Position numbers and translations under genes: made by a program
In this document: positions 1 through 25,197 of the stretch, in pieces
How positions within the stretch are numbered: position 1 is the first letter of the stretch
Layout of the letters: the number at the start of each line of letters is the position of its first letter
Origin: Escherichia phage vB_EcoM_VR20
Sequence record: NC_028894.1
Reading direction: 5' to 3' (one strand)
Length of the DNA stretch: 64,000 nucleotides
The notes under the pieces: model-generated
What the model was told of the DNA's origin: nothing
The model's input: only the letters and a program-made list of their open reading frames with translations
Database searches by the model: none

Positions 1-146
1 CCGGTACCAAATTGGATACCATATTCATCTGCGATTTCTTCACAGTGTTTTTCAATTTCAGAGGTCTTATTTAGAAGAGAATAGATAGCTTTTTCTGCAG
101 ATTTCTCATCATAATACTTGGGGATAGCAATTTCAATTTTATTCAT
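1..146 (-). CDS. hypothetical protein, partial (start codon in window, 3' end beyond window start)
   Basis: ATG at 146..144 overlaps the stop of the upstream gene (ATGA); frame stays open to position 1 (MNKIEIAIPKYYDEKSAEKAIYS...). Confidence 0.4.
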   Translation of the reverse strand, partial: MNKIEIAIPKYYDEKSAEKAIYSLLNKTSEIEKHCEEIADEYGIQFGT

Positions 147-496
147 GATTTACATTCCTTAATAAAGGTTTCAAGGTCATTACGTTTTGTTTTGTCTAGG
201 AACTTATTATACTCAGCCATTGCTGAAGCATATCTCTTCCGACTAGGAGCATTCACGGCGTTTGTGTGACAGATATCATACACAACAGGTATAAAATAAG
301 ACACAACAGCCGGAGCGATTATCATAAAGAAGCCCATCTCAATAGGCATCACTCCCTCGATTGCAGCCATAACCGTGGTCATTACCAGACCAACCAAACC
401 ACCAAGCATGGCGGTGACAATCCCTAATAATAAATTGGCACCAATATCATATTCAGCCAATTGATAAACATGTGATGCAAGATTAGGCCGTTCCAT
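143..496 (-). CDS. small hydrophobic (membrane) protein, unknown function
   Basis: ATG at 496 preceded by AAGGAGG; the ORF-track start at 559 is GTG without an RBS. Long hydrophobic core (LLLGIVTAMLGGLVGLVMTTVMAAI). Confidence 0.5.
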   Translation of the reverse strand: MERPNLASHVYQLAEYDIGANLLLGIVTAMLGGLVGLVMTTVMAAIEGVMPIEMGFFMIIAPAVVSYFIPVVYDICHTNAVNAPSRKRYASAMAEYNKFLDKTKRNDLETFIKECKS

Positions 497-842
497 TACG
501 AACCTCCTTAATAAATTCTTCGGCACATTTAATTTTGTGCTCTTCTTGCAGGGAAACACATTTTTGTTCCCACTCTTTAACTCGTCCCCGATAACCTTTA
601 TTCATATGATTTTGATGCCACACATTTATCAATACCATACACAGGACTGTAATAAAAGGAGCTGCAATTACTAGCGTCCAGGCGACTCCAACACTAATGA
701 TATTCATATCCCCACAAAGCACCATCATTATAACCCCAACGATGCACATGGACAGAGCTCCAAATGGAGGCATAAGGTCTTTATCAATCTTGTCTGCGTA
801 CACAAATTTTTCTGGTTTACTTGGCAGATATAACGTTCGCAT
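483..842 (-). CDS. small hydrophobic (membrane) protein, unknown function
   Basis: ATG at 842 with AAAGGGG upstream; the track start at 878 is TTG. Hydrophobic segment plus charged C-terminus; similar architecture to 143..496. Confidence 0.5.
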   Translation of the reverse strand: MRTLYLPSKPEKFVYADKIDKDLMPPFGALSMCIVGVIMMVLCGDMNIISVGVAWTLVIAAPFITVLCMVLINVWHQNHMNKGYRGRVKEWEQKCVSLQEEHKIKCAEEFIKEVRNGTA

Positions 843-1371
843 TTTGAACCCCTTTAGCATATTCACGACATTCAGCAATAAAACGATTAAGCTTTCGTTT
901 TTGTTTATGACTTTCTAATGTGTACTCAGACGTCAAATCAAGAAGCTCAGCTTTATCATAATTTTTAATATCAGTATAAGCTGGCCGGCGGTCAACCATT
1001 CCAAATACATCACCATTTTCTAGCGCCACATAACATACTAAATGGTAATCATCATCTGCCATATTAAGAAGTATACAATCATCGCTCTCGTTTAAAGCAT
1101 ATACTGAATAACGTAGTCCAGCGAATTCCACTCGTTGAATACCCAGATTTACATCAATAATTTCCAAGGCATCTGCGAAAGAAAGGTCTTCAGCTAAAGC
1201 AAAAATAAAAGGCAATTTTGTAGTATCGCCACGGCTAGTTGTTCTTCTTAAGAAATCATTGGAATAACCCAAGTCACCGCGGATTCTATAAAGAACTGTA
1301 TTAGTTTCAGTAGCAAGGCCACTACCGCCAAACCAGTCTACATTTGATATAAGGTCAGTATATAAGCTCAT
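817..1371 (-). CDS. hypothetical early protein
   Basis: ATG at 1371 preceded by GGAGAGGAG; the track start at 1389 is TTG. GC hairpin immediately upstream. Confidence 0.55.
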   Translation of the reverse strand: MSLYTDLISNVDWFGGSGLATETNTVLYRIRGDLGYSNDFLRRTTSRGDTTKLPFIFALAEDLSFADALEIIDVNLGIQRVEFAGLRYSVYALNESDDCILLNMADDDYHLVCYVALENGDVFGMVDRRPAYTDIKNYDKAELLDLTSEYTLESHKQKRKLNRFIAECREYAKGVQNANVISAK

Positions 1372-1414
1372 AATTTTCTCCTCTCCCAATTAGGGGGCTT
1401 TGCCCCCCTTTATC

Positions 1415-2008
1415 TTACTTAAGTGAATTGATGTATTCTTCAATGTCAGCGGATGTGGTATCCACACCAACCTGTGGACCTTTGAAGGTTTCAACACGCA
1501 TCAGAGTGTCTTCAATATCAATCTTAGTCAATGCAGCGATTTCAACAACATCATCTGCGGTTGCAATACCTAGGGCAGACACCTTACGGGTTTCGCGGAT
1601 GTATTCCAGTTTAACAGCTAGTTCCTGACGAGAGTCATCCAGCTCTTTAACTTTCAATTTAATTTCATTACGCATTTCAACATAATCATCTGCCTTCTTA
1701 CGAAGTTGTTTAGCAGTGCGACGATACAGGAGACCCAGTTTAGCATGGACCTGGACATCAGCACCATCAGCAATCAGTTTACGAATTTCACGCTCTTTTG
1801 AAGCGGCGAGCTGGTCTTTTTCATTCGCTAGCTCGCGGATGCGTTTTTCTTCATTAACAGACTTAACGTGGGCAGTCTGGAGCTCAGTAATCTTATCAAT
1901 CAGGGTAGAAGCAGCTTTAGTATACTGGTCTTCAATAGACAGGTTTTGCGCCATTGCAGTACCCAGTTTGGAGCGGATAAATTCAACAAGTTTCTTTAAA
2001 GTATTCAT
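1415..2008 (-). CDS. hypothetical protein, largely predicted coiled coil
   Basis: ATG at 2008 with AAGGAA RBS; 197 aa rich in heptad-like charged repeats ([20 protein letters not shown]...). Confidence 0.6.
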
Positions 2009-2083
2009 GGTATTTCCTTCAGATGGTTAAAGTTTTATTATCCAGGGAACATACTATCATGTTCCCAGAGGTATGTAAACATT

Positions 2084-2482
2084 TTATTTCATTTTTGCGA
2101 GGCAGATTTCATTGGCTTCCCATTGAGCTTGCTTAATAATAGCTTTGGATACAGGAACCTTTTGACCATAAGTTTTTGACGTTGAGAGAACAATATATTT
2201 GTTTGCCTCATTATGCCAGCCCCATGATTTTTCACCATGAGTACCTTTAACTACAGCTGACACCTCAACAGAACAACCATCAGCGCCAATCTTGGTATCA
2301 ACAATCCATTCATTTCGCTTAATTGCTTCTTCCAATGCTGCTGCTTCCGCCATCCAGTGTGTTTCAGGGTCTATTTGTTCAATCTCACGAGTTAACGCAG
2401 CTCCCAGGTCTTTTGCATATTTTTGTTGCTCTGGGGTTAATGAGTCATATAACTTTTTCATTTCTTTATCTTCAATATTCAT
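2084..2482 (-). CDS. hypothetical early protein
   Basis: ATG at 2482 with GAGG RBS; the track start at 2512 is TTG inside a GC hairpin. Confidence 0.55.
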   Translation of the reverse strand: MNIEDKEMKKLYDSLTPEQQKYAKDLGAALTREIEQIDPETHWMAEAAALEEAIKRNEWIVDTKIGADGCSVEVSAVVKGTHGEKSWGWHNEANKYIVLSTSKTYGQKVPVSKAIIKQAQWEANEICLAKMK

Positions 2483-2516
2483 AATATTTTCCTCAAGGGG
2501 CTTTCGCCCCAATCAT

Positions 2517-2822
2517 TTAAATTTTGTTTTCCTGCACACCATAATAAAGTTCATCAGACACAATATCCAGGATGCGGCGAACATATTCATCATGGTATTG
2601 GCAGTCAAAATCAAATGCAACAGTAGTTTCCGCTTCACGAGTGAATTTAACTTGCACATTCAGGTGATTAACAACGTTAGTTAATTTATCAGTAAAGAAC
2701 TCTTTTGCTACCGCCTGTTGGACTTGCACTTTGAACTTGGTGTTACGAATCATATTTTCAGCAGATGTGAAATTACCAGTTTTATCAAAGTCAACAAGCG
2801 CCAGGTTGATGATGAATTTCAT
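2517..2822 (-). CDS. hypothetical early protein
   Basis: ATG at 2822 directly preceded by the conserved leader ...ACACTGGAGAATAAA-ATG and early promoter copy A. Confidence 0.55.
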   Translation of the reverse strand: MKFIINLALVDFDKTGNFTSAENMIRNTKFKVQVQQAVAKEFFTDKLTNVVNHLNVQVKFTREAETTVAFDFDCQYHDEYVRRILDIVSDELYYGVQENKI

Positions 2823-2863
2823 TTTATTCTCCAGTGTTTTATTTGGTAACTCAGTATGGAATC

Positions 2864-2893
2864 ATTATGCCTTAAAGCAGGGGGCTTGTATAC
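2864..2893 (-). promoter_or_regulatory. T4-type early promoter (cassette copy A): -35 GTATAC, -10 CATAAT
   Basis: Minus-strand reading GTATAC-18 nt-CATAAT, followed by the conserved leader ACTGAGTTACCAAATAAAACACTGGAGAATAAA and ATG at 2822. Confidence 0.55.
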
Positions 2894-2904
2894 CCCCTTT
2901 TTAA

Positions 2905-3348
2905 TTAAATTTCAAATTCTTTGCGGAAGTTGGAAGCATAAGACTGAACTGATGCTTTGTTGAATCCAAACTCACGCACAATCATATCAATAACAGCTCT
3001 GCGAGCAGCACCGTTAGACATATTAACAGTTCTGAACATATCATAGCATAAATCTTTGTTGCTCATACCGGAGCGTTTAGGTGCCTTACGTTCAGCTTTT
3101 GGTTCAGCTTTAGGAGTAGGTTTAACTTCTGGTTTAACCTGTCCATCATTCAGACCTTTAAAAATTTTACCTGCCAGAGTTGCCAGTTTAGCAGCTTCGC
3201 CACGAGTGATACCAAATACTGCCGGGTTAAATGAAATACCTTCAGCTGTCAGACGTTTGAAGAACATACGTGCTGCGGATTGTGCTTCAGCTTCAGAAGA
3301 GTTGTTTAATGCCAGTTTAACATACTTAACCAGTTTTGAAGTTTTCAT
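2905..3348 (-). CDS. hypothetical early protein with C-terminal module shared with 3801..4226
   Basis: ATG at 3348; C-terminal ...NGAARRAVIDMIVREFGFNKASVQSYASNFRK matches ...NAARRALIDVLVTTHDIKKTVVQSYASNFRK of the neighbouring gene. Confidence 0.6.
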   Translation of the reverse strand: MKTSKLVKYVKLALNNSSEAEAQSAARMFFKRLTAEGISFNPAVFGITRGEAAKLATLAGKIFKGLNDGQVKPEVKPTPKAEPKAERKAPKRSGMSNKDLCYDMFRTVNMSNGAARRAVIDMIVREFGFNKASVQSYASNFRKEFEI

Positions 3349-3390
3349 TTTATTATCCCGTTTGTTTATTTGGTAACTCAGTATGGAATC

Positions 3391-3420
3391 ATTATGCCTT
3401 AGTTAAATTCCAAAGTACAT
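3391..3420 (-). promoter_or_regulatory. T4-type early promoter (cassette copy B)
   Basis: Minus-strand ATGTAC-18 nt-CATAAT; core GGTAACTCAGTATGGAATCATTATGCC (plus 3372..3398) is identical to copy A. Confidence 0.5.
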
Positions 3421-3421
3421 A

Positions 3422-3718
3422 TTAATTTTCAGAAGTTGGGAAATAAACTTCAAAGTCATACATGTTTACTACTGCAGTCGCGATTGCTTGGTACTGCATA
3501 CCCAAGAAAGTTTTCTTGTTCTTACGCCACAAGTTAACCATTTCTGTTTTGATGCATGCCAGGGAGTAGTTGGATGCAGGATACTGTTTGATGATTGCAA
3601 CAACTTCTTCAGAAGCAGTTTCGCACAATTCATTCAGTTGAGCTTCAATTTTAGCAGAAATGATTGCTTTGTTTTCTTCTTGAGCTTGGGTAGCGTGCCA
3701 TGCAGGTGCGTTGAACAT
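3422..3718 (-). CDS. hypothetical early protein
   Basis: ATG at 3718 preceded by AAACACTGGAGAATAAA leader and promoter copy C. Confidence 0.5.
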   Translation of the reverse strand: MFNAPAWHATQAQEENKAIISAKIEAQLNELCETASEEVVAIIKQYPASNYSLACIKTEMVNLWRKNKKTFLGMQYQAIATAVVNMYDFEVYFPTSEN

Positions 3719-3759
3719 TTTATTCTCCAGTGTTTTATTTGTTAACTCAGTATGGGATA

Positions 3760-3789
3760 ATTATACACTATCCCACCTGGAAGTAAAAC
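3760..3789 (-). promoter_or_regulatory. T4-type early promoter (cassette copy C) with -10 inside a hairpin loop
   Basis: Minus-strand GTTTTAC ... GTGTATAAT; the -10 lies in the loop of the 7-bp stem TGGGATA/TATCCCA (plus 3753..3775). Confidence 0.55.
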
Positions 3790-3800
3790 ACTTTTCTCAA

Positions 3801-4226
3801 TTATTTTTGAGCTTTGCGGAAGTTGGATGCATATGACTGAACAACAGTCTTTTTGATATCATGGGTGGTAACCAGAACATCAATCAGAGCGCGACGAGCT
3901 GCATTATCATTCATATCAATTTCTGCAAATGCCTGGAAGCAAATGTCACGAGCATTACCAGATTTGGACTGGATTTTTTCTTCTTTAACTTCTTCAATTG
4001 GGAATTCAATCATTTCAGCTTGGATTAATTCAATGATAGATTCTTTTGACTGTTTGGTGTTTACCTTCAGTTCAGAATTAAGGGACTTGGCGATGGCAAC
4101 AATCTGGGTTGAAGTCAGATGAATAAGTGCATCTTCACGAATGCAGATTTCACATACTTCGTCAGCAACCATTTTGTTGGTGATGCGGGTAACAGAAAAT
4201 GCAGAGGTCAGGGTCAGAAAGTTCAT
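3801..4226 (-). CDS. hypothetical early protein with C-terminal module shared with 2905..3348
   Basis: ATG at 4226 preceded by GGAGAAATAAA leader; the track start at 4307 is GTG lying inside the promoter cassette. Shared C-terminal motif VQSYASNFRK. Confidence 0.6.
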   Translation of the reverse strand: MNFLTLTSAFSVTRITNKMVADEVCEICIREDALIHLTSTQIVAIAKSLNSELKVNTKQSKESIIELIQAEMIEFPIEEVKEEKIQSKSGNARDICFQAFAEIDMNDNAARRALIDVLVTTHDIKKTVVQSYASNFRKAQK

Positions 4227-4277
4227 TTTATTTCTCCAAAGTTTTGTTTGATTCAGTGTGTAACTCAGTATGGAATC

Positions 4278-4307
4278 ATTATGCGCCGGGTCAATTCGGA
4301 TGTACAC
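4278..4307 (-). promoter_or_regulatory. T4-type early promoter (cassette copy D)
   Basis: Minus-strand AAAAGTAGTGTACA-17 nt-CATAAT, followed by the conserved ACTGAGTTAC core. Confidence 0.5.
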
Positions 4308-4343
4308 TACTTTTTGAAGAAAATTTCAAATTTATTCGGGGTA

Positions 4344-4366
4344 TAAAAAAGCCCGCAATGCGGGCT
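4344..4366 (-). terminator. intrinsic terminator (minus strand)
   Basis: Hairpin AGCCCGC-AAT-GCGGGCT followed on the minus strand by a U-run (plus-strand AAAAAA 4345..4350); sits just downstream of gene 4368..4922. Confidence 0.6.
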
Positions 4367-4367
4367 G

Positions 4368-4922
4368 TTAGTTCTTATAAAAGCGGAACGGATTTATATG
4401 AAAGGCGAGCATAGCCTTAGGGATGGGTCGGGACAGAAGGCTCTTGAGCTTCCAGCCACAATAAACACGCAGATAAAAGGTGATTCCACCGACCTTAAGA
4501 TAAGGAACAGAAGCAAAAACACCCCAGGCGTTGTCCGTCCACATCCAGAGCCATCCATGATGAGCTTTATCCGGGGAACCAGATTCGACATCAGGATTAC
4601 CTTTATAATGGAATTCTGAATTGCAATCACGACCGAGCTTGTGGTAAGCAAAATTGTATGCTTTGTTTCGCCAGAGCCAGGCTACTCGTTGGAAGTAAAC
4701 ACCTAACGGCCATTTTCTGATTTTTTCCCAGCGTTTAACATGACCACGGTCACCATCAATTGGATTATCGTATGTCATCATCCAGTCAAATCCGAACGGA
4801 AGCTTACCAGTCTTTTTGTTATGGAACGGCACTACAAATGGTGCAAGGATAACAGCCAGAATCATTGAAATGAAATCCAGTGGCACTAACAGAATCCAGC
4901 TTAGATATTTTAAAAGTTTCAT
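4368..4922 (-). CDS. membrane-anchored protein, Trp/aromatic-rich, unknown function
   Basis: ATG at 4922; N-terminal hydrophobic helix (LSWILLVPLDFISMILAVILAPFVV); terminator hairpins on both flanks. Confidence 0.55.
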   Translation of the reverse strand: MKLLKYLSWILLVPLDFISMILAVILAPFVVPFHNKKTGKLPFGFDWMMTYDNPIDGDRGHVKRWEKIRKWPLGVYFQRVAWLWRNKAYNFAYHKLGRDCNSEFHYKGNPDVESGSPDKAHHGWLWMWTDNAWGVFASVPYLKVGGITFYLRVYCGWKLKSLLSRPIPKAMLAFHINPFRFYKN

Positions 4923-4954
4923 AAATTTCCTTAGTTATGGGTACGTTATATTTA

Positions 4955-4984
4955 TAAAAAAGCCCCAACCTTTCGGAAGGGGCT
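4955..4984 (-). terminator. intrinsic terminator (minus strand)
   Basis: Hairpin AGCCCC...GGGGCT with inner CC-UUUC-GG, followed on the minus strand by a U-run (plus AAAAAA 4955..4960). Confidence 0.55.
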
Positions 4985-5032
4985 AAGCCTTGCGGCAACC
5001 TTGTCGGGGTTCCACCTGCTAGGCAAGTGTTC

Positions 5033-5416
5033 TTATCCGCGTGCGAATGCCATTGCAGCGCGTTCGTTGGCACGGTCAGTGATGTTCAAGAATTTATCAC
5101 GAGCGATTTCGATTGGAGCACCAACCCAGTCAGCAGCACCATTACCTGGGGACTGTTTAGGACGAACCATATAAGTTGAAACTTTGGAACCAGCTAGTTT
5201 AGCACCAGGTGCAGCGGCATTCTTAACGTCTTTAGCTTTGATACCAAAACCAGTTACGATGCCCCAAGAAACACCATTAACTGGTTTCTTGAACATAACA
5301 CGGTCGCCAATTGAAACACCCGCTTTTTCTGGAGCTACTAAAGAAAATTTACCGGCTTCAGTCAGCACGGATTCGGTGATGGTATTGCGATTTAAAAATT
5401 CTGCATATGTAAGCAT
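5033..5416 (-). CDS. hypothetical protein
   Basis: ATG at 5416, 127 aa; weak RBS; terminator downstream. Confidence 0.45.
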   Translation of the reverse strand: MLTYAEFLNRNTITESVLTEAGKFSLVAPEKAGVSIGDRVMFKKPVNGVSWGIVTGFGIKAKDVKNAAAPGAKLAGSKVSTYMVRPKQSPGNGAADWVGAPIEIARDKFLNITDRANERAAMAFARG

Positions 5417-5653
5417 TTTGTTTTTCCATTATTAGGGTTGTTGTTAATATTTATATTCCATAGTACCGGATGCACCATCCGCTCGGATTTCTCATACTAC
5501 CGGGCGCACCGCCCGCTCTGGAAAAACTCCATAAAAAGGTGCGCCGTTTCTGCTGTGATATAAGGGGACATCAACAAATCGTAAAGATTTATTAATGTCA
5601 GTCCTTAAACAGGGAACATCAGTCCGACGACTTACCGGTAGCGACCCGGTTTC

Positions 5654-5893
5654 TCATTCAATTGTAATAGCTAATTTGACTTTAACAACCTTATAATTGG
5701 AATCAAGGTCATTGAATTCCATAAAATTTGTTGCTAATCTGCGAGTCGGGAAACTTAGATATTTATTATGAGCCGGAGGAGCGGTTAATGCAAACCATGG
5801 GACTTGTTTATCATTTGCATCGAACTCGTCAAAACTATAAACCAGCTCGTTGTTGGTTATATCCATAACCGCATAGGATTCGTTAATAACCAT
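5654..5893 (-). CDS. hypothetical protein
   Basis: ATG at 5893 with GAGGA RBS, immediately downstream (minus strand) of the tRNA pair. Confidence 0.45.
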   Translation of the reverse strand: MVINESYAVMDITNNELVYSFDEFDANDKQVPWFALTAPPAHNKYLSFPTRRLATNFMEFNDLDSNYKVVKVKLAITIE

Positions 5894-5910
5894 ATAATAT
5901 CCTCAGTAAT

Positions 5911-5987
5911 TGGTCGGGGTGGTGGGATTCTAACCCACAACCTACGGTTTAGAAGACCGTTGCTCTATACAATTGAGCTACACCCCG
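5911..5987 (-). tRNA. tRNA-Arg (anticodon TCT), CCA encoded
   Basis: Minus-strand sequence folds as a cloverleaf: acceptor CGGGGTG/CACCCCG, D-arm GCTC/GAGC, anticodon stem ACGGT/ACCGT with loop CTTCTAA, T-arm GTGGG-TTAGAAT-CCCAC, 3' ACCA. Confidence 0.8.
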
Positions 5988-5989
5988 AG

Positions 5990-6063
5990 TGGCCCCATCC
6001 GGACTTGAACCGGAAACCTGCCAGTTATGAGCCGGATGCTCTAACCAATTGAGCTACAGGGCC
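5990..6063 (-). tRNA. tRNA with anticodon CAT (Met or Ile2-type)
   Basis: Minus strand: acceptor GGCCCTG/TGGGGCC (two GU pairs), D-arm GCTC/GAGC, anticodon loop CTCATAA, T-arm TCCGG-TTCAAGT-CCGGA, discriminator A. Confidence 0.75.
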
Positions 6064-6068
6064 TAAAA

Positions 6069-6335
6069 TTAAATTACAAATCCAGCGGGAGCATTATCAT
6101 CTTTTGCCATGTGCTGAATTGTATGATAAGTCATTTCTTCAGGAGCAACCAGATAAGCCGCAACGTTAACTAGTGGAATTATTTTTGGTTTAGCGAATGT
6201 GCTATCGGCAATTGCCATAAAGGACTCGCCGTCGGTCTCAACTTCGCCAAATTGACATTCATATGAAATAGAACAACGTTTGGTAGTTGTTGTCTTGGTT
6301 TCCGGGTCATAAAAAGCTAATTTTAATACTAACAT
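6069..6335 (-). CDS. hypothetical protein
   Basis: ATG at 6335 with GAGGTG RBS; the track start at 6341 is GTG. Confidence 0.45.
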   Translation of the reverse strand: MLVLKLAFYDPETKTTTTKRCSISYECQFGEVETDGESFMAIADSTFAKPKIIPLVNVAAYLVAPEEMTYHTIQHMAKDDNAPAGFVI

Positions 6336-6456
6336 AAACACCTCAAATAAAATTAAGTAAAGTAAGTTTGATTAATAGCACATGCTATTATGAAAGATTC
6401 TTTGAGGGAAGAACCTTTGGTAATAGAGGGTACTTATTAATAATAACGCGTTTTTG

Positions 6457-6939
6457 TTAAAGCATATCAAGCGCTTTAACAGATGGGATTCGGATTTCTT
6501 CTTCGATTATATATAGCTTAACATAAGAAATTACACGCATGAAATCGCCATCATATTCGCAAGCCATACCTAAAAGTTCAGTCAGAGCTTCATTCAGGTA
6601 GTATTCTTCATCATCGTCATTCAACAAGGCTTCCAAATCTGCAATACCAAGAACTTTATTCAAAAATTCATAAGTCAACTGCCCAGATTTTACACCAGAT
6701 GCAATGTGGGCGATAACCAAGTGTTTAACCACATCCCATTCTGAATTACCACATTTATTGCGGTTGTTACAATGCGAACCATGGAAAAGTTCCAGGATAT
6801 ATTTGTACTGTTGGATTTCTTGTTCTTCTACGCCAAATACCATTTGGGTTTTATAGTTGTCACCATCATTTTCCCAGGTTTCAATTTCAATCGCATAACC
6901 TTTAGGGATGGTCTGACCAAATTTGATATTCATTCGCAT
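6457..6939 (-). CDS. hypothetical early protein
   Basis: ATG at 6939 with AAGGAA RBS; 160 aa with acidic C-terminal half. Confidence 0.5.
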   Translation of the reverse strand: MRMNIKFGQTIPKGYAIEIETWENDGDNYKTQMVFGVEEQEIQQYKYILELFHGSHCNNRNKCGNSEWDVVKHLVIAHIASGVKSGQLTYEFLNKVLGIADLEALLNDDDEEYYLNEALTELLGMACEYDGDFMRVISYVKLYIIEEEIRIPSVKALDML

Positions 6940-7319
6940 GTTCCTTCATCAACAATAGTATGCGTATTGGCATTAACAATCTGCCACCAGTCAAAACGGT
7001 TGGAACCATAACAAGGCTTTTTCTCGTTTTCTTTAATGATATCGCGCAGTTCATCTTCAGTCGCAGCTTTTGCAATTAAGTCAGCATAACCGCCACGAGG
7101 ATAATAACTATCACCAGCAAAGAGCAAAAAGTTTGTTTTGATATTCTTGAATTCTTCAAGAGTAATAACTGTTCCAGATGGTTGAACAATATCTACGTAA
7201 CTATATCCTAATTTCTGGGCATTATCTACCGCTTCAAGCAGGGTGTCATGTGCCCACCCAATTTGGCACTCTGGCTTTTCAGATGGATTGGCCTGATAAT
7301 CCGCATACACTTTATACAT
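6930..7319 (-). CDS. hypothetical early protein
   Basis: ATG at 7319 with AAGGTGAG RBS, 1 nt after the stop of the upstream gene; the track N-terminal extension overlaps gene 7321..7506. Confidence 0.5.
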   Translation of the reverse strand: MYKVYADYQANPSEKPECQIGWAHDTLLEAVDNAQKLGYSYVDIVQPSGTVITLEEFKNIKTNFLLFAGDSYYPRGGYADLIAKAATEDELRDIIKENEKKPCYGSNRFDWWQIVNANTHTIVDEGTCE

Positions 7320-7320
7320 T

Positions 7321-7506
7321 TTACTCACCTTTAGACATTTTATCCATAACGAAAGAGATTGAACCAATTAAGAATGCAACTACTAAAGAGATTATATTCT
7401 CAGAAGTTGAAAGCATATTCAACATAAAGCCAGCGAACATGCTAAAACCAAAAGCGGTAACAGCAACAAAGGCAGTAACATTTCTAATTAATTCGCAACG
7501 TTTCAT
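7321..7506 (-). CDS. small membrane protein (61 aa)
   Basis: ATG at 7506 with GAGGAG RBS and a stem-loop early promoter upstream; two hydrophobic segments. Confidence 0.5.
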   Translation of the reverse strand: MKRCELIRNVTAFVAVTAFGFSMFAGFMLNMLSTSENIISLVVAFLIGSISFVMDKMSKGE

Positions 7507-7534
7507 TTTATTCTCCTCATTAGTTGATGGGATA

Positions 7535-7565
7535 ATTATACACTATCCCATATCTAAAAGTACAC
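7535..7565 (-). promoter_or_regulatory. early promoter with -10 (GTGTATAAT) in hairpin loop; -35 GTGTAC
   Basis: Stem TGGGATA/TATCCCA (7528..7550) encloses the -10; GTGTAC lies about 17 nt upstream on the minus strand. Confidence 0.55.
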
Positions 7566-7799
7566 TTATTTTTTACGGAAAATTGATTTATACTGTTTAG
7601 CCCATTTCTCGATAACTTCTGCTGGACCCTGGATAACAAAATAGTCCCCAAACTCTTCACCGCCGAGCTGACCGTAATTATCTAAGGCGTCGCGGAGAGT
7701 TCCATAAGGCATTTCGCCCATTTTATCTTTCTTGCCGGTGTAAATGAATTGCACTTTAACATCAGCAGTTTCATTAATAAATTCTTGATAAGTTTTCAT
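7566..7799 (-). CDS. internal-protein-like small protein with N-terminal capsid targeting sequence (MKTYQEFINE)
   Basis: N-terminus MKTYQEFINE-T matches the T4 IP capsid targeting sequence with a prohead protease (gp21) type cleavage motif; own promoter/RBS module; adjacent to 57B as ipI is in T4. Confidence 0.7.
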   Translation of the reverse strand: MKTYQEFINETADVKVQFIYTGKKDKMGEMPYGTLRDALDNYGQLGGEEFGDYFVIQGPAEVIEKWAKQYKSIFRKK

Positions 7800-7824
7800 G
7801 TTGTCTCCAGTAGTTGATGGGATA

Positions 7825-7854
7825 ATTATACTGCAGTTATCCCATCACGTACAC
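7825..7854 (-). promoter_or_regulatory. early promoter with -10 in hairpin loop
   Basis: Stem GATGGGATA/TATCCCATC (7816..7846) with loop carrying TATAAT on the minus strand; GTGTAC -35 at 7849..7854. Confidence 0.55.
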
Positions 7855-8132
7855 TAAATTTTTGTATATTGTCCAGCTTTAACTTTTTTCAGTTCACGAG
7901 GGCTTACCGCGTAAGTGAATGGAGCATTCCAGGAAGAACTGACTTTGTAACCTTTAGTCAACATCATTGCTGAAACTTTCTTGTTATCAGGACCGTTTTC
8001 GCCTTTAACAAGAAACAACTCAAATGCGCCACCATCAACCGGTTTGGCCTTAACCATCAGATGTCCTTTCAGGTCTTCCAGCATATCCGGGTGACTAATT
8101 GATTCGTTAATAAATTCTTGATAAGTTTTCAT
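7854..8132 (-). CDS. internal-protein-like small protein with CTS (MKTYQEFINE)
   Basis: N-terminus MKTYQEFINE-S; unrelated body; own promoter module upstream. Confidence 0.7.
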   Translation of the reverse strand: MKTYQEFINESISHPDMLEDLKGHLMVKAKPVDGGAFELFLVKGENGPDNKKVSAMMLTKGYKVSSSWNAPFTYAVSPRELKKVKAGQYTKI

Positions 8133-8158
8133 TAGTAGCTCCAGTAGTTGATGGGATA

Positions 8159-8188
8159 ATTATACTGCATTTATCCCATCGTGTACAT
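8159..8188 (-). promoter_or_regulatory. early promoter with -10 in hairpin loop
   Basis: Perfect 10-bp stem GATGGGATAA/TTATCCCATC (8150..8180) with TATAAT in the loop; palindromic TGTACA -35 at 8183..8188. Confidence 0.55.
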
Positions 8189-8487
8189 TACATTTTTGAA
8201 CCGCGAATCACGCCATAAGCTGCGAAGTCGTCAGTGATGTTCTTAGGGGTGTTTTTACCAGTTTCAATATATGCGATGCTGGATTTCTGACCAAATGAGG
8301 TAATTTTATTATAGTTAGAGTCAAGGAAAGTATAACCATTTTTACGCAGCTGGTCAAAGTCTTCAGCGTCGCCTTTACCTTTGAAGTCAACCCATTTGTA
8401 TGTGTTTTTCTTCTGAAGGCCCAGAGGCCAGGTTTTTGCTTCTGCCAGGTAATTATTTTCTACCAAAAATTCGTGGAGCGTTTGCAT
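8188..8487 (-). CDS. internal-protein-like small protein with CTS variant (MQTLHEFLVE)
   Basis: CTS-like N-terminus; only 8 nt from the upstream gene, so probably co-transcribed. Confidence 0.6.
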   Translation of the reverse strand: MQTLHEFLVENNYLAEAKTWPLGLQKKNTYKWVDFKGKGDAEDFDQLRKNGYTFLDSNYNKITSFGQKSSIAYIETGKNTPKNITDDFAAYGVIRGSKM

Positions 8488-8495
8488 TTGAAATC

Positions 8496-8768
8496 CTATT
8501 TTAGATAAATTGCATATTTTTTATAACCAGCTGTCTCATGGCGGAGACCCTTGTCATTGGCAAAACGCTCAATGTTGTTGATTTGGTTCTGGTCAAGTTC
8601 AGAGATGTCAAACGCGAAAAAGTTGCGTTTGTTACCAATTGTTATATGGTCAGTTAAGTCAATGCTATACAAGTGATTGATATTGTCAATCATAGCTTTG
8701 ACTGCTTTACTAATTTTTACTTCTTCATTCAGTTGGGACTCGTTGAAAAGTTCATTAAAAGTTTTCAT
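8496..8768 (-). CDS. internal-protein-like small protein with CTS variant (MKTFNELFNE)
   Basis: CTS-like N-terminus; tightly packed behind 8777..9109. Confidence 0.6.
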   Translation of the reverse strand: MKTFNELFNESQLNEEVKISKAVKAMIDNINHLYSIDLTDHITIGNKRNFFAFDISELDQNQINNIERFANDKGLRHETAGYKKYAIYLK

Positions 8769-8776
8769 AAGAAACC

Positions 8777-9109
8777 TTATTTATACAGTTTAGCTAGTTC
8801 TTTACGTCCGCGAGCAGACATAATGAATTGTTCATCACCAATTTTGAAATAAGCCATACCGCCGTCAACAGCGATGCCAATTTCTTTAGTACCTTCTTTG
8901 CCTTTCCACTTACCACCAGATTTCAGGACAGCTTCAACTGCAGCTTTGGAATATTTGGACGTTTGAAAACGTTCATTACCAATCTGAAAGAAAACACCAT
9001 CTGCATTTTTGGATAAACCAAATTTCAGAGAGCCTTCACTATCATCAATTGATTTGGTCTCATTGATGGCGGATTCGGCTAAAAACTCGTTGTAAGTTTT
9101 GATGTTCAT
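8777..9109 (-). CDS. internal-protein-like small protein with CTS variant (MNIKTYNEFLAE)
   Basis: CTS-like N-terminus with LAE cleavage motif; GGAG RBS; stem-loop promoter upstream; directly downstream of 57B. Confidence 0.65.
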   Translation of the reverse strand: MNIKTYNEFLAESAINETKSIDDSEGSLKFGLSKNADGVFFQIGNERFQTSKYSKAAVEAVLKSGGKWKGKEGTKEIGIAVDGGMAYFKIGDEQFIMSARGRKELAKLYK

Positions 9110-9140
9110 TTTAACTCCGTTTGTTCATTGGTGTAGGAAC

Positions 9141-9169
9141 ATAATACTGCACCTACACTCATTTGTACA
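9141..9169 (-). promoter_or_regulatory. early promoter with -10 in hairpin loop (covarying stem)
   Basis: Stem GTGTAGG/CCTACAC (9131..9158) differs in sequence from the other copies but keeps the pairing; loop carries TATTAT; TGTACA -35 at 9164..9169. Confidence 0.5.
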
Positions 9170-9854
<685 letters not shown>

Positions 9855-9855
<1 letters not shown>

Positions 9856-10532
9856 TATAGTACCTTATTAATTTTATCAAAAAGTTCATCGAGTGTGCCA
9901 TCGTTTTTAATAACAATGTCACTAGCTAGTGGTGGAAGTCCAGCTTCCGTAATGTGTGTATCAGTAGAATGATTTGCTTCATCGCGTTCTACAAAGATTA
10001 TTGTAGCACCCATCGCCCGAAGCGAATCAAGTTCGTTCTTTTGGCGAACATCCGGGACAACGTAATATTTATATCCAGAATAGAGGTTGTCAAGATAGTC
10101 GCATGCAAAAGTTTTAATCCAAAACATGCTGTCGAACTCTGTACAAACGATGTCAGTTCCAAGGGTCTGCATGAAACGTCTAACTGTCCAGGGCTCAACA
10201 TTATTTAGTGTGTGAAATTCAATAATTTTACGAACCATATCTGGATTCGGAAGGTCAAGATTGTATTGTTGTTTCAACCATTCAAGAGCATCAACCAGAA
10301 GAATATAAGCTTCGGTGTTGTTCATTATCAAGGTTTTTTCACGGTCATAACCTTGTCCATCAAAATTTTCCAGGGTCAAATTGTGTGGTAGGTCTTGACG
10401 AATCCACGCTTTATAAAGCGCTTCTTTAATCGGACCCGCAAGCTGCCACTTTGTTCCGTTTTGACTAATAACATAATCAGCAGTCGTATCTTTACCACTG
10501 CGTTTTTTACCCACAATCGCAATTAATTTCAT
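9855..10532 (-). CDS. 1: gp1, deoxynucleoside monophosphate kinase
   Basis: P-loop GKKRSGKDT and overall resemblance to T4 gp1; synteny. Confidence 0.85.
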
Positions 10533-11128
10533 ACGTTTCTCATAGATGGATGCATTGACTTAGACCTGATTTCCTGTTGCATTGCTGCATTACTATCAAT
10601 CTGTGGTCTACCTTCTATTATTATACCATCAATTTCTACAGCAAAAGACTTAAAGTTAAAAGTTGCTGTTGCATTGATAGCCGGGTCAGAATCTTCTTTA
10701 TATGAATACTGAATCTCTGACAGGTCGGACGGCCATGCTCCATAGTAATGGATTGACATGACAATTTTGTCCTTGTTGTTATCTAAGATATGAAGCGTGA
10801 CCGCTTCGGGACGACCCTTTGGATGCCATGCTTTTGATTCGTGTGTGATGTAGTTGTTGAGCGAGAGCATCCATTTATAGATATCAAGCCATGCTCTTAG
10901 GTCTTTGTCACACAGAAAGTTAACAATCAGCGGGTCGAATTCTATTGTACTACCAGGAAGACTGGAGCGATTTATACCTTGTGTCCCCCCGGGGACATCC
11001 GTCACAGGAATGTGAACTCCTGGGAGGGTAACATCTTGAACGTTGAGTTTAAAGGTCTGTGTGAGGTTTGAATCGCTTACCTCTAATATAAAGTTAGTCG
11101 TGTTAGTTTGATTATATAAACCTGACAT
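10529..11128 (-). CDS. 3: gp3-like tail completion / sheath stabiliser protein
   Basis: Synteny (1-3-2-4 as in T4); ATG at 11128 with AAGGTG RBS; the track N-terminal extension overlaps gene 2 and is rejected. Confidence 0.6.
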   Translation of the reverse strand: MSGLYNQTNTTNFILEVSDSNLTQTFKLNVQDVTLPGVHIPVTDVPGGTQGINRSSLPGSTIEFDPLIVNFLCDKDLRAWLDIYKWMLSLNNYITHESKAWHPKGRPEAVTLHILDNNKDKIVMSIHYYGAWPSDLSEIQYSYKEDSDPAINATATFNFKSFAVEIDGIIIEGRPQIDSNAAMQQEIRSKSMHPSMRNV

Positions 11129-24532: not shown

Positions 24533-25197
24533 TGACTACTTTGACAAATAAAAAGGCGGGTGTAATATCCCGCCATGCTGGTTACCTCCAGTTTGATTAT
24601 ACCACTACCGATTCCACTGCTGTAGCGGGTAACCGCTATATCGGTGGTCCATCTGCTAACCAGACAAATGACGGTGTATTCTATCCGACAGTCCAGAGCG
24701 CAATTGATGATATTGCATTTCGTGCAGAACTTCCTGTCGGGTCGATAATTACTCGTCATGAGAATACCGCTCCTGGGTTTATTAGCCAGTCAGATAAGAT
24801 TAAGTTCACTGGGTCTATTTCTGGCGAAAACCTTGGCGAAACGGTTCTTATTAAAGTATTCGGTTTCCCGGTAGAAGTTATTGTCGGTGACTCGAGCGTG
24901 CTGGTTGCATCGAAAGTCAATGACGTTCTTTTGACTGCAATTTCCCAGGGAATGATTATTTCTGCGACTGCTATCGATGCACTGGACCAGTCTATATTAA
25001 ATATTACATATAACGACTATCAGAATCACATCTTTGCCCCCACGACTCAATATGGTTGTGTTATGGAACAGACTATTGTTCAGCAACCTCGCTCTGGCTA
25101 TGGTCAATGGGAATATCTTGGCGCACAAGATGTAGTATTGCAAGGTGGTTCGGTTAATGGTCCAACATCTCTTTATCACTATAAGCGAGTCTACTAA
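24532..25197 (+). CDS. 11: gp11, baseplate wedge and tail pin
   Basis: ATG at 24532 (TAATG overlap with gene 10; track start 24514 is TTG); 221 aa. Confidence 0.8.
   Translation: MTTLTNKKAGVISRHAGYLQFDYTTTDSTAVAGNRYIGGPSANQTNDGVFYPTVQSAIDDIAFRAELPVGSIITRHENTAPGFISQSDKIKFTGSISGENLGETVLIKVFGFPVEVIVGDSSVLVASKVNDVLLTAISQGMIISATAIDALDQSILNITYNDYQNHIFAPTTQYGCVMEQTIVQQPRSGYGQWEYLGAQDVVLQGGSVNGPTSLYHYKRVY

Follow-up and report, generated by a model that had tools for sequence, protein, structure and literature searches.

The question raised by positions 7528-9169 of the DNA studied here, a stretch of 64,000 nt from Escherichia phage vB_EcoM_VR20 (sequence record NC_028894.1; hereafter the window), is why early promoters in front of small genes should carry their -10 hexamer in the loop of an inverted repeat. 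These positions correspond to the 57B-ipI-trna.4 locus of T4, one of the two T-even loci at which the genes for internal proteins (IPs) vary; more than 500 T-even genomes match the locus. Over positions 7000-10000, the window shares approximately 97% identity with two Escherichia phages, VR7 and TH57 (Tevenvirinae, Gaprivervirus). We identified six elements on the minus strand (at 9170, 8187, 7853, 7564, 3787, and 2079), each of which combined a T4-type early promoter with a perfect inverted repeat of 7-11 bp around the -10 hexamer. The stem arms of such elements covary among related phages, and their placement argues that the hairpin belongs to the gene junction rather than to the promoter. 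All six copies were located within positions 1-9200, each in an intergenic region and followed by a Shine-Dalgarno (SD) sequence and the start codon of a small gene:

9131..9170, minus strand: P9169, upstream of the first IP-like gene (8777-9109)
8150..8188, minus strand: P8187, upstream of the IP-like gene 7854-8132
7815..7854, minus strand: P7853, upstream of the ip6-like gene 7566-7799
7527..7565, minus strand: P7564, upstream of the trna.4 homologue 7321-7506
3725..3793, minus strand: P3787, upstream of the open reading frame (ORF) 3422-3718
2045..2079, minus strand: P2079, absent from the list in an earlier interpretation made from the letters alone (the sequence-only reading)

All six copies contained a -35 of the T(G/T)TAC type, a spacing of 16-18 nt, a -10 hexamer reading TATAAT, TATTAT, or TAGTAT, and upstream A-tracts. 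By sequence match they fit the T4 early consensus, which has GTTTAC at -36 to -31 and a GT-rich stretch before the -10 (5' of -12), and the pattern GTGTAC-N15-20-TATWAT was found 3 times as compared to 0.14 expected. From these sequences and the precedents in T4 and RB49 we infer promoter activity and the start site of the elements. The folding energies of the six copies ranged from -13.4 to -16.1 kcal/mol, with z-scores of -3.1 to -4.6 relative to shuffled sequences.

In P9169, the -35 GTGTAC (9170-9165) was located right after the TAG stop codon of 57B, the -10 was TATTAT (9146-9141), and the stem was formed by GTGTAGG (9158-9152) and CCTACAC (9137-9131; -15.6 kcal/mol, z -3.5), with the SD sequence GGAG about 10 nt beyond the 3' arm. 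The -35 of P8187, (A)TGTACA (8187-8182), abutted a TAA stop codon and was followed by TATAAT (8164-8159) and a stem of GATGGGATAA (8180-8171) and TTATCCCATC (8159-8150; -13.6 kcal/mol, z -3.1). Similarly, the -35 of P7853, (G)TGTACG (7853-7848), abutted a TAG stop codon, and its TATAAT (7830-7825) was bracketed by an 11-bp core stem, TGATGGGATAA (7847-7837) and TTATCCCATCA (7825-7815; -15.6 kcal/mol, z -3.4). P7564 contained (G)TGTACT (7564-7559), TATAAT (7540-7535), and a stem of ATGGGATA and TATCCCAT (-15.2 kcal/mol, z -4.6), and its SD sequence GGAGAATAAAA, like that of P3787, fits the strong RegB-site consensus GGAGRAYARAA. P3787 had TTTACT (3787-3782) and an inner stem of TGGGATA (3775-3769) and TATCCCA (3760-3754) around TATAAT (3765-3760), and in addition a 9-bp outer stem, AGTGTTTTA (3792-3784) and TAAAACACT (3737-3729), ending directly before the SD sequence GGAG (3728-3725). 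P2079 contained TTTACA (2079-2074), TAGTAT (2056-2051), and a stem of GGGAACAT (2066-2059) and ATGTTCCC (2052-2045) that is unrelated to the other stems; the orthologous sites in other T-even phages read GAGGACA/TGTCCTC between conserved flanks.

The four hairpins that the sequence-only reading had reported from the IP locus were all found where it had placed them, as was its fifth copy (3754-3775), while several details had to be adjusted. The stem given as 7528..7550 was correctly located and 1 bp longer, 8 bp at 7527-7534/7544-7551. The GTGTAC motif holds for the other listed IP-locus copies, whereas the copy at 8187 reads ATGTAC. The spacer of about 17 nt is 17 nt if counted from TGTACN, the equivalent of TTGACA, and 18 nt if counted from GTGTAC. 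Most of the hexamer is in the loop, but its last one or two bases belong to the 3' arm, and the RNA loop is only 4-5 nt in two copies if G:U pairs are counted. The GGGATA/TATCCC stem is common to four of the six copies, which are clearly paralogous (TGGGATA-N9-11-TATCCCA).

The association between the hairpin and the -10 hexamer is far from random. We sampled the window, T4, and 27 related loci, using 57B as the anchor. A stem of 7 bp or more enclosed the -10 at 33 of 210 sense-strand promoter-like sites, as compared to 0 of 148 antisense sites and 1.8% of all TAnnnT hexamers, and the maximum of the stem signal was exactly at the -10. The hairpin midpoints formed two clusters, one at the -10 and the other at -40 to -70, and downstream they were near background. 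Loop sizes varied from 6 to 18 nt and the register by several nt, and the symmetry centre most often coincided with the first bases of the hexamer. In the complete VR7 genome, a stem of 7 bp or more surrounded the -10 at 11 of the 41 early-strand promoter-like sites with an SD sequence and ATG (at 14 if the minimum is set to 6 bp), against 1 of 91 sites in the control classes. These 11-14 copies represent about nine unrelated stem sequences and are located upstream of ORFans, IP genes, ndd, denV, sp, and other genes, also outside the IP loci.

The sequence-only reading had argued for selection on structure from the four listed stems, a thin basis given that three of them are paralogous copies and only one is divergent, and had proposed that more copies be aligned. 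From this phage, VR7, T4, and the 27 relatives, we collected 140 unique promoter-like elements, regardless of whether they had a stem, and exchanged the 3' halves among them. A stem of 7 bp or more was present in 43 of the 140 elements, as compared to 3.8 +/- 1.9 after swapping (maximum 11 in 1000), and in 21 of the 93 elements in a non-redundant set, as compared to 1.6 +/- 1.2; as the sequences are related, these figures are not exact probabilities, but the effect was large and consistent. The orthologous family of trna.4 promoters gave the same result. RNAalifold predicted 9 pairs in this family, 4 of which had changed on both sides, and 88.9% of the cells were paired, as compared to 77.9 +/- 2.4% in shuffled alignments (0 of 500 as high) and 40% to 58% with slid partners. 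At one and the same position, AGGGCTAT/ATAGCCCT in some members corresponds to AGGGTTAT/ATAACCCT in others, which is a clean compensatory change. In T4, the 3' arm of the trna.4 promoter has been kept, while the 5' arm has been relocated to a position beside the -35. Thus, the stem arms truly covary, and the feature is real and under selection, as had been claimed.

The position of the hairpin depends on the space available at the junction. For 103 unique intergenic elements, we recorded how far the -35 was from the preceding stop codon (the gap) and where the hairpin was located:

Gap below 15 nt, 80 elements: hairpin nested around the -10 in 40, only upstream in 1, none in 39
Gap of 15-29 nt, 1 element: hairpin nested in 1, only upstream in 0, none in 0
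Gap of 30-100 nt, 22 elements: hairpin nested in 0, only upstream in 13, none in 9

The upstream hairpins were compact, many with UUCG tetraloops, and most of the GC-rich UUCG hairpins were followed by T-rich tails. The UUCG loop is a motif of RNA-specific stability, said to have been first noticed in T4 intercistronic regions by Tuerk et al. in 1988. The nested hairpins, in contrast, had a mean loop of 11 nt and stems with 47% GC. A role intrinsic to the promoter would predict nesting in roomy junctions too, and it was seen in none of the 22. This argues against a promoter mechanism and for a junction hairpin that, for want of space, has been packed around the -10.

The reading that we favour, to which we assign a probability of roughly 60%, is that the elements are cassettes of the PeSL (promoter-early stem-loop) type known from other T4-type phages, in which a strong sigma70-dependent T4-type early promoter has an intergenic hairpin nested inside it, and that the hairpin most likely serves as a junction module on read-through RNA. 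The promoter would consist of the A-rich upstream region, a G(T/G)TTAC-like -35, a 17-nt spacer, and a TATAAT-like -10. The spacer accommodates the 5' arm of the hairpin, and the 3' arm falls in the discriminator and start-site region. Nowhere else is a compact promoter free to vary, and therefore the -10 ends up in the loop. The promoter's own transcript would start about 7 nt past the -10, within or just after the 3' arm, and for this reason it would be unable to form the hairpin, which only the read-through RNA can do. We infer that on this RNA the hairpin marks and insulates the junction. It might act as a weak attenuator or pause or, alternatively, as a 3' barrier that shields the upstream cistron once the junction has been cut, for example by RegB at the GGAG of the SD sequence; that a hairpin upstream of such a cut protects the upstream cistron from 3' exonucleases is speculation. 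Each cassette would then be expressed from its own promoter, and the repeated promoter core, together with the SD sequence and the capsid-targeting codons at IP genes, would provide short homologies for the gain, loss, and swapping of cassettes.

A more specific variant, in which the read-through RNA hides the ribosome-binding site, was considered and rejected as a general mechanism. The 3' arm ends 7-10 nt before the SD sequence in four of the window copies and about 29 nt before it in P3787, and the unpaired probability over -15..+3 in the read-through RNA versus the own transcript was 0.44 versus 0.45, 0.53 versus 0.77, 0.50 versus 0.70, 0.58 versus 0.50, and 0.68 versus 0.67. The changes are thus small and inconsistent. 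P3787 is an exception, in that the accessibility of the SD sequence and start codon was 0.31 in the read-through RNA and 0.61 in the own transcript, with the additional outer stem ending at the SD sequence. Such a layout was seen in four of the related loci (L006 at 6670-6735, L027 at 6790-6855, and L011 and L013 at about 6664-6730), where an early promoter is located inside a long-range stem of 12-16 bp and the 5' arm with the -35 (TTTACATCTCCATTTG) pairs with the SD region (CAAATGGAGATGTAAA) in the 3' arm. Folding predictions for these loci gave -21 to -28 kcal/mol for the read-through RNA, with the SD sequence buried, and about -3 for the own transcript, which is open. By these predictions, the layout is that of the T4 gene-e type switch on an early promoter.

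The lack of a consistent effect on SD accessibility in the window copies is one of several observations that weigh against a junction module on the RNA. About half of the compact junctions do without a hairpin, which must therefore be dispensable, and the nested hairpins are not canonical intrinsic terminators: with long loops and no T-run, any termination would be weak. The mismatches in 35 unique stems, of which 27 were perfect Watson-Crick helices, included 2 G:T, 2 A:C, and 4 others, a tie that favours neither RNA-level nor DNA-level selection. Moreover, the elements are not phylogenetically independent, and the link between compact junctions and nesting could reflect a shared cassette history rather than function. 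The folding energies of the sense and antisense strands did not differ (Wilcoxon p = 0.15), a comparison that is confounded by the asymmetric promoter consensus.

How cassettes have been exchanged at these elements was evident from close relatives. The IP cassette containing the gene 7854-8132 is flanked by two imperfect direct repeats:

8197-8103, minus strand: copy of an approximately 95-bp repeat with promoter, hairpin, SD sequence, and the start of the MKTYQEFI capsid-targeting sequence
7864-7770, minus strand: second copy of the same repeat

The repeats delimit a unit of 334 bp that is missing from VR25 (locus L002), which differs from the window by exactly this unit. A 95-bp stretch of VR25 aligns to both repeats and contains a hybrid element, the 5' side of which corresponds to P8187 and the 3' side to P7853, and this places the crossover in an identical stretch of 33 nt covering the -10, the 3' arm, and the leader. 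In VR26 (L001), window positions 8480-7861 have been replaced by 229 unrelated bp, with the right breakpoint at P7853. Locus L018 contained two chimeric elements (6468-6510 and 6801-6840), in which a 5' arm of the trna.4 type has been joined to a 3' arm of the ipI type in a shared 18-nt core, GGTAGTGATACTATTACC. The stem was broken in one of the chimeras (-7 kcal/mol), and in the other an A-to-G change restores the pairing.

It was also noted that the neighbouring VR7 elements upstream of ORF153c and ip6 (68478-68516 in VR7 for the first, corresponding to 8150-8188 in the window) are identical in loop and leader (ATAACTGCAG...GGAGACAAC), whereas the first of the two neighbouring elements in the window (8150-8188) differs (ATAAATGCAG...GGAGCTACTA). 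Judged from the sequences, adjacent copies seem to have undergone gene conversion in one of the lineages.

Five other explanations of the hairpins were weighed against a junction module on the read-through RNA. A palindrome over the -10 is in the classic position of an operator, and four of the window copies share TGGGATA-N9-11-TATCCCA, as would suit a dimeric repressor that shuts off early promoters. We rejected such a protein as highly improbable, since the stems in one genome are mutually unrelated (GTGTAGG, GGGAACAT, TCAGTATGGA, TGGGGTCA, TTGGTACAGGT, and others) and the half-site spacing varies, so that one protein could not read them all. Nor do we give much credence to a role for the hairpin in the DNA itself, where a cruciform or single-stranded hairpin would display the -10 in its loop and tune open-complex formation or supercoiling sensitivity in the manner of the phage N4 hairpin promoters and plasmid single-strand promoters. 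The -10 is indeed centred in the loop and the stems are perfect DNA palindromes, but nesting was confined to compact junctions and absent from half of these, the loop size ranges from 6 to 18 nt and the register shifts by several nt, and the 3' arm spans -7 to about +3, a region that has to pair with its template-strand partner only after melting, so that a cruciform would presumably hinder the open complex. The sequence-only reading had suggested that the hairpin could terminate or process read-through transcripts while the embedded promoter restarts transcription; in the strict promoter-terminator interpretation of PeSLs, the hairpins are efficient terminators that end the upstream transcript. 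The stem-loop of an RB49 PeSL reduced lacZ expression as much as rrnB T1 (PMC2839356), and the nested hairpins hold the place taken by terminator-like UUCG hairpins in roomier junctions. However, none of 41 nested hairpins had 5 or more T among the 8 nt that follow the stem, a terminator scan called none of the six window elements but did call a hairpin at 4366-4350, and the T-even IP-locus stems have been rated as weaker and more AT-rich (Arbiol 2010, PMC2839356). Termination in the canonical sense is accordingly not borne out, and we regard efficient terminators as an unlikely explanation.

About equally unlikely is that the inverted repeat has no function at all and is a by-product of promoter duplication and of templated mutation at quasipalindromes, by which imperfect repeats become perfect and which is familiar from work on T4 rII. 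The shared stem of the four paralogous window copies, the near absence of imperfect stems, which is what templated correction yields, and the many compact junctions that lack a hairpin are all consistent with this. The mutational mechanism alone would, however, leave the position specificity unexplained: at least nine unrelated stem sequences occupy one place in one genome, none were found at antisense or non-genic promoter-like sites, nested and upstream hairpins exclude each other according to space, and orthologous sites retain the pairing by means of different sequences and registers. Slightly less doubtful, and still improbable, is that the hairpins are structure-specific DNA recombination sites functionally resembling integron attC, the folded single strands or cruciforms of which would be recognised by a structure-specific enzyme such as endonuclease VII, such that cassettes are excised and inserted as mini-circles. 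It is the structure rather than the sequence that is conserved, the elements are restricted to compact cassette junctions, the crossovers in VR25 and L018 are located within them, and nearly all stems are perfect Watson-Crick helices with no preference for G:U. Mini-circles of PeSLs have been detected in RB49 and phi1, and the authors left site-specific recombination open (PMC2839356, PMC4122927). On the other hand, all crossovers seen were within 18-33 nt of identity, for which ordinary homologous recombination suffices, no dedicated recombinase was evident, the roomy junctions carry an RNA-type UUCG hairpin instead, and it is evident from the chimeric stems in L018 that pairing is broken by recombination rather than required for it. 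A combined role, in which the nested hairpins are both RNA junction signals and DNA recombination sites for IP and ORFan cassettes, and thus a promoter-carrying phage analogue of integron attC, is compatible with the evidence but not demanded by it, and we hold it to be just as improbable. As an analogy only, attC sites are likewise cassette boundaries with inverted repeats conserved in structure rather than sequence, whereas no integrase is involved here, the crossovers are in sequence identity, and the elements contain promoters.

The match to mobile promoter-plus-stem-loop cassettes of T4-type phages, which had been proposed from the letters alone, agrees with the literature on PeSLs and with the gain and loss of cassettes in VR25 and VR26. 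In RB49 and phi1, PeSLs are strong sigma70-like promoters with stem-loops, located mostly in hyperplastic regions upstream of ORFans; they were divided into five subclasses by stem position, including stems that overlap the -10, reporters gave promoter and terminator-like activity, and the mini-circles arise from exchange between neighbouring elements (Arbiol 2010, PMC2839356). The same study credits Repoila et al. 1994 (EMBO J 13:4181) with "PeSL-like sequences" at the two T-even IP loci, and describes these as T4 early promoters with weaker and AT-richer stems, which are analogues rather than homologues of PeSLs and were proposed to drive IP shuffling. PeSLs have since been extended to T4/PST and KVP40/nt-1 (Comeau 2014, PMC4122927). 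A literature search on VR7 promoters retrieved no paper.

The window elements resemble PeSLs in having an early promoter that is AT-rich on its upstream side, a stem-loop, and an SD sequence with the start of a small gene, in their many copies in hyperplastic regions, and in coinciding with the breakpoints where close relatives differ by indels and replacements (VR25, VR26, L018). They differ from the RB49 and phi1 PeSLs, which have near-consensus TTGACA/TATAAT promoters, polyG/polyC stems, and measured terminator-like activity, in their GTTTAC or GTGTAC promoters, mixed-sequence stems, long loops, and lack of a T-run. Sequence homology to the RB49 and phi1 PeSLs was looked for and not found, as both the -35 and the stems differ. 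In the figures for PST and T4, the stems are mostly located just upstream of the promoter (PMC4122927), whereas here they are nested at compact junctions. The elements thus belong to the functional PeSL class as broadened by Comeau 2014 (PMC4122927) and not to the RB49 sequence family; they are further members of a published class and not a new concept.

With the elements of Repoila et al., here compared through the summary in Arbiol 2010 (PMC2839356), they share the 57B-ipI-trna.4 locus and IP genes with a capsid-targeting sequence, and the T4 ipI promoter has the same layout as the window copies (TGATGAGGTA / TACTAT / TACCTCATCA). The -10 of this ipI promoter is calculated to be at about 73915-73910 on the minus strand of NC_000866, which would predict a start near 73903; public dRNA-seq data exist for T4 (GEO GSE255091, cited in bioRxiv 10.1101/2024.04.04.588121). 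The copies in the VR7 group are distinguished by GTGTAC and the GGGATA/TATCCC stem family, and by being present also outside the IP loci. T4 itself contains intercistronic UUCG-tetraloop hairpins and intrinsic terminators. These occupy the same type of junction between co-oriented early genes, and UUCG hairpins are used instead of nesting at gaps of 30-100 nt; they have 4-nt loops, often with T-rich tails, and are separate from the promoter, whereas the nested hairpins have loops of 6-18 nt that contain the -10 and no T-run. In T4 gene e, a promoter is located inside a hairpin that sequesters the ribosome-binding site, although this is a late promoter (Uzan & Miller 2010, PMC3014915). As in gene e, the promoters in the window are situated within a region that encodes a structure, such that the own transcript lacks the 5' arm and the read-through RNA folds, but the 3' arm stops short of the SD sequence, the accessibility of which is little changed, with P3787 as a partial exception.

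The space-dependent nesting and the quantitative covariation, which are not found in the PeSL literature consulted (Arbiol 2010; Comeau 2014), may be useful additions. For specialists, they quantify arm covariation across many T-even promoters and show that nesting is limited to junctions in which the -35 directly adjoins the upstream stop codon, with a separate UUCG-type hairpin where there is room, which offers a simple design for mutational tests. More broadly, IPs and the neighbouring small early genes have anti-defence and host-adaptation functions, and their shuffling and independent expression influence which hosts T4-type phages, therapeutic ones among them, can infect.

The genes at the locus were arranged as follows:

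9855-10532, minus strand: gene 1
9625-9855, minus strand: 57A
9170-9625, minus strand: 57B
8777-9109, 8496-8768, 8188-8487, 7854-8132, and 7566-7799, minus strand: five small IP-type genes
7321-7506, minus strand: ORF of 61 amino acids for a membrane protein, the T4 trna.4 homologue
8778-8785, minus strand: T4-type late promoter motif TATAAATA, overlapping the stop codon of 8777-9109 and upstream of the ip9-like gene
4350-4366, minus strand: canonical intrinsic terminator from the terminator scan, AGCCCGCATTGCGGGCT followed by TTTTT

The MKT(Y/F) capsid-targeting motif of internal proteins opens four of the five small genes, and MQT opens the fifth. A degenerate DNA pattern for the capsid-targeting sequence was also scanned in viral contigs and set aside, since the matches listed were mostly to unrelated contigs. 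The gene at 8777-9109 is the counterpart of VR7 ORF156c, and 7566-7799 is the ip6-like gene. VR7 also encodes regB, alt, motA, and asiA. The motif at 8778-8785 was the sole T4-type late promoter motif in the IP array, and the IP-like genes 7854-8132 and 7566-7799 had early-type promoters only, though internal proteins are needed during head assembly.

The phage uses ordinary terminators where space permits, as exemplified by the hairpin at 4350-4366. This GC-rich hairpin, AGCCCGCA(A/T)TGCGGGCT, has T-runs on both sides, was called as a terminator on both strands, and is located between the converging end of ORF 4368-4922 and the region upstream of 3801-4307. It is also covered by a weak, sub-threshold Rfam hit to the small RNA STnc370. 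In a comparison of window positions 1-10600 with the Rfam covariance models, two tRNAs alone reached the threshold and the promoter-hairpin elements were unmatched. The adjacent genes for tRNA-Arg (TCT) and tRNA-Met (CAT) were found on the minus strand at 5911-6063, where the RefSeq annotation of VR7 contains tRNA-Met only.

The ORFs 2905-3348 and 3801-4307 (minus strand) have a common C-terminal segment (...NAARRA.ID..V......K..VQSYASNFRK...) and different N-terminal parts, and look like paralogues; P3787 follows one of the two. Finally, a plus-strand site at 24541 was left out of the element family because it is inside the coding sequence of gene 11. A 6-bp inverted repeat, GGCGGG/CCCGCC, surrounds TAATAT at 24556-24575 (plus strand) in the 5' coding region of gene 11, just past the gene 10/11 overlap. 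Its VR7 counterpart reads GGCGAG/CTCGCC, such that both arms have changed between genomes that are about 97% identical, one change being Gly-to-Ser and the other synonymous.

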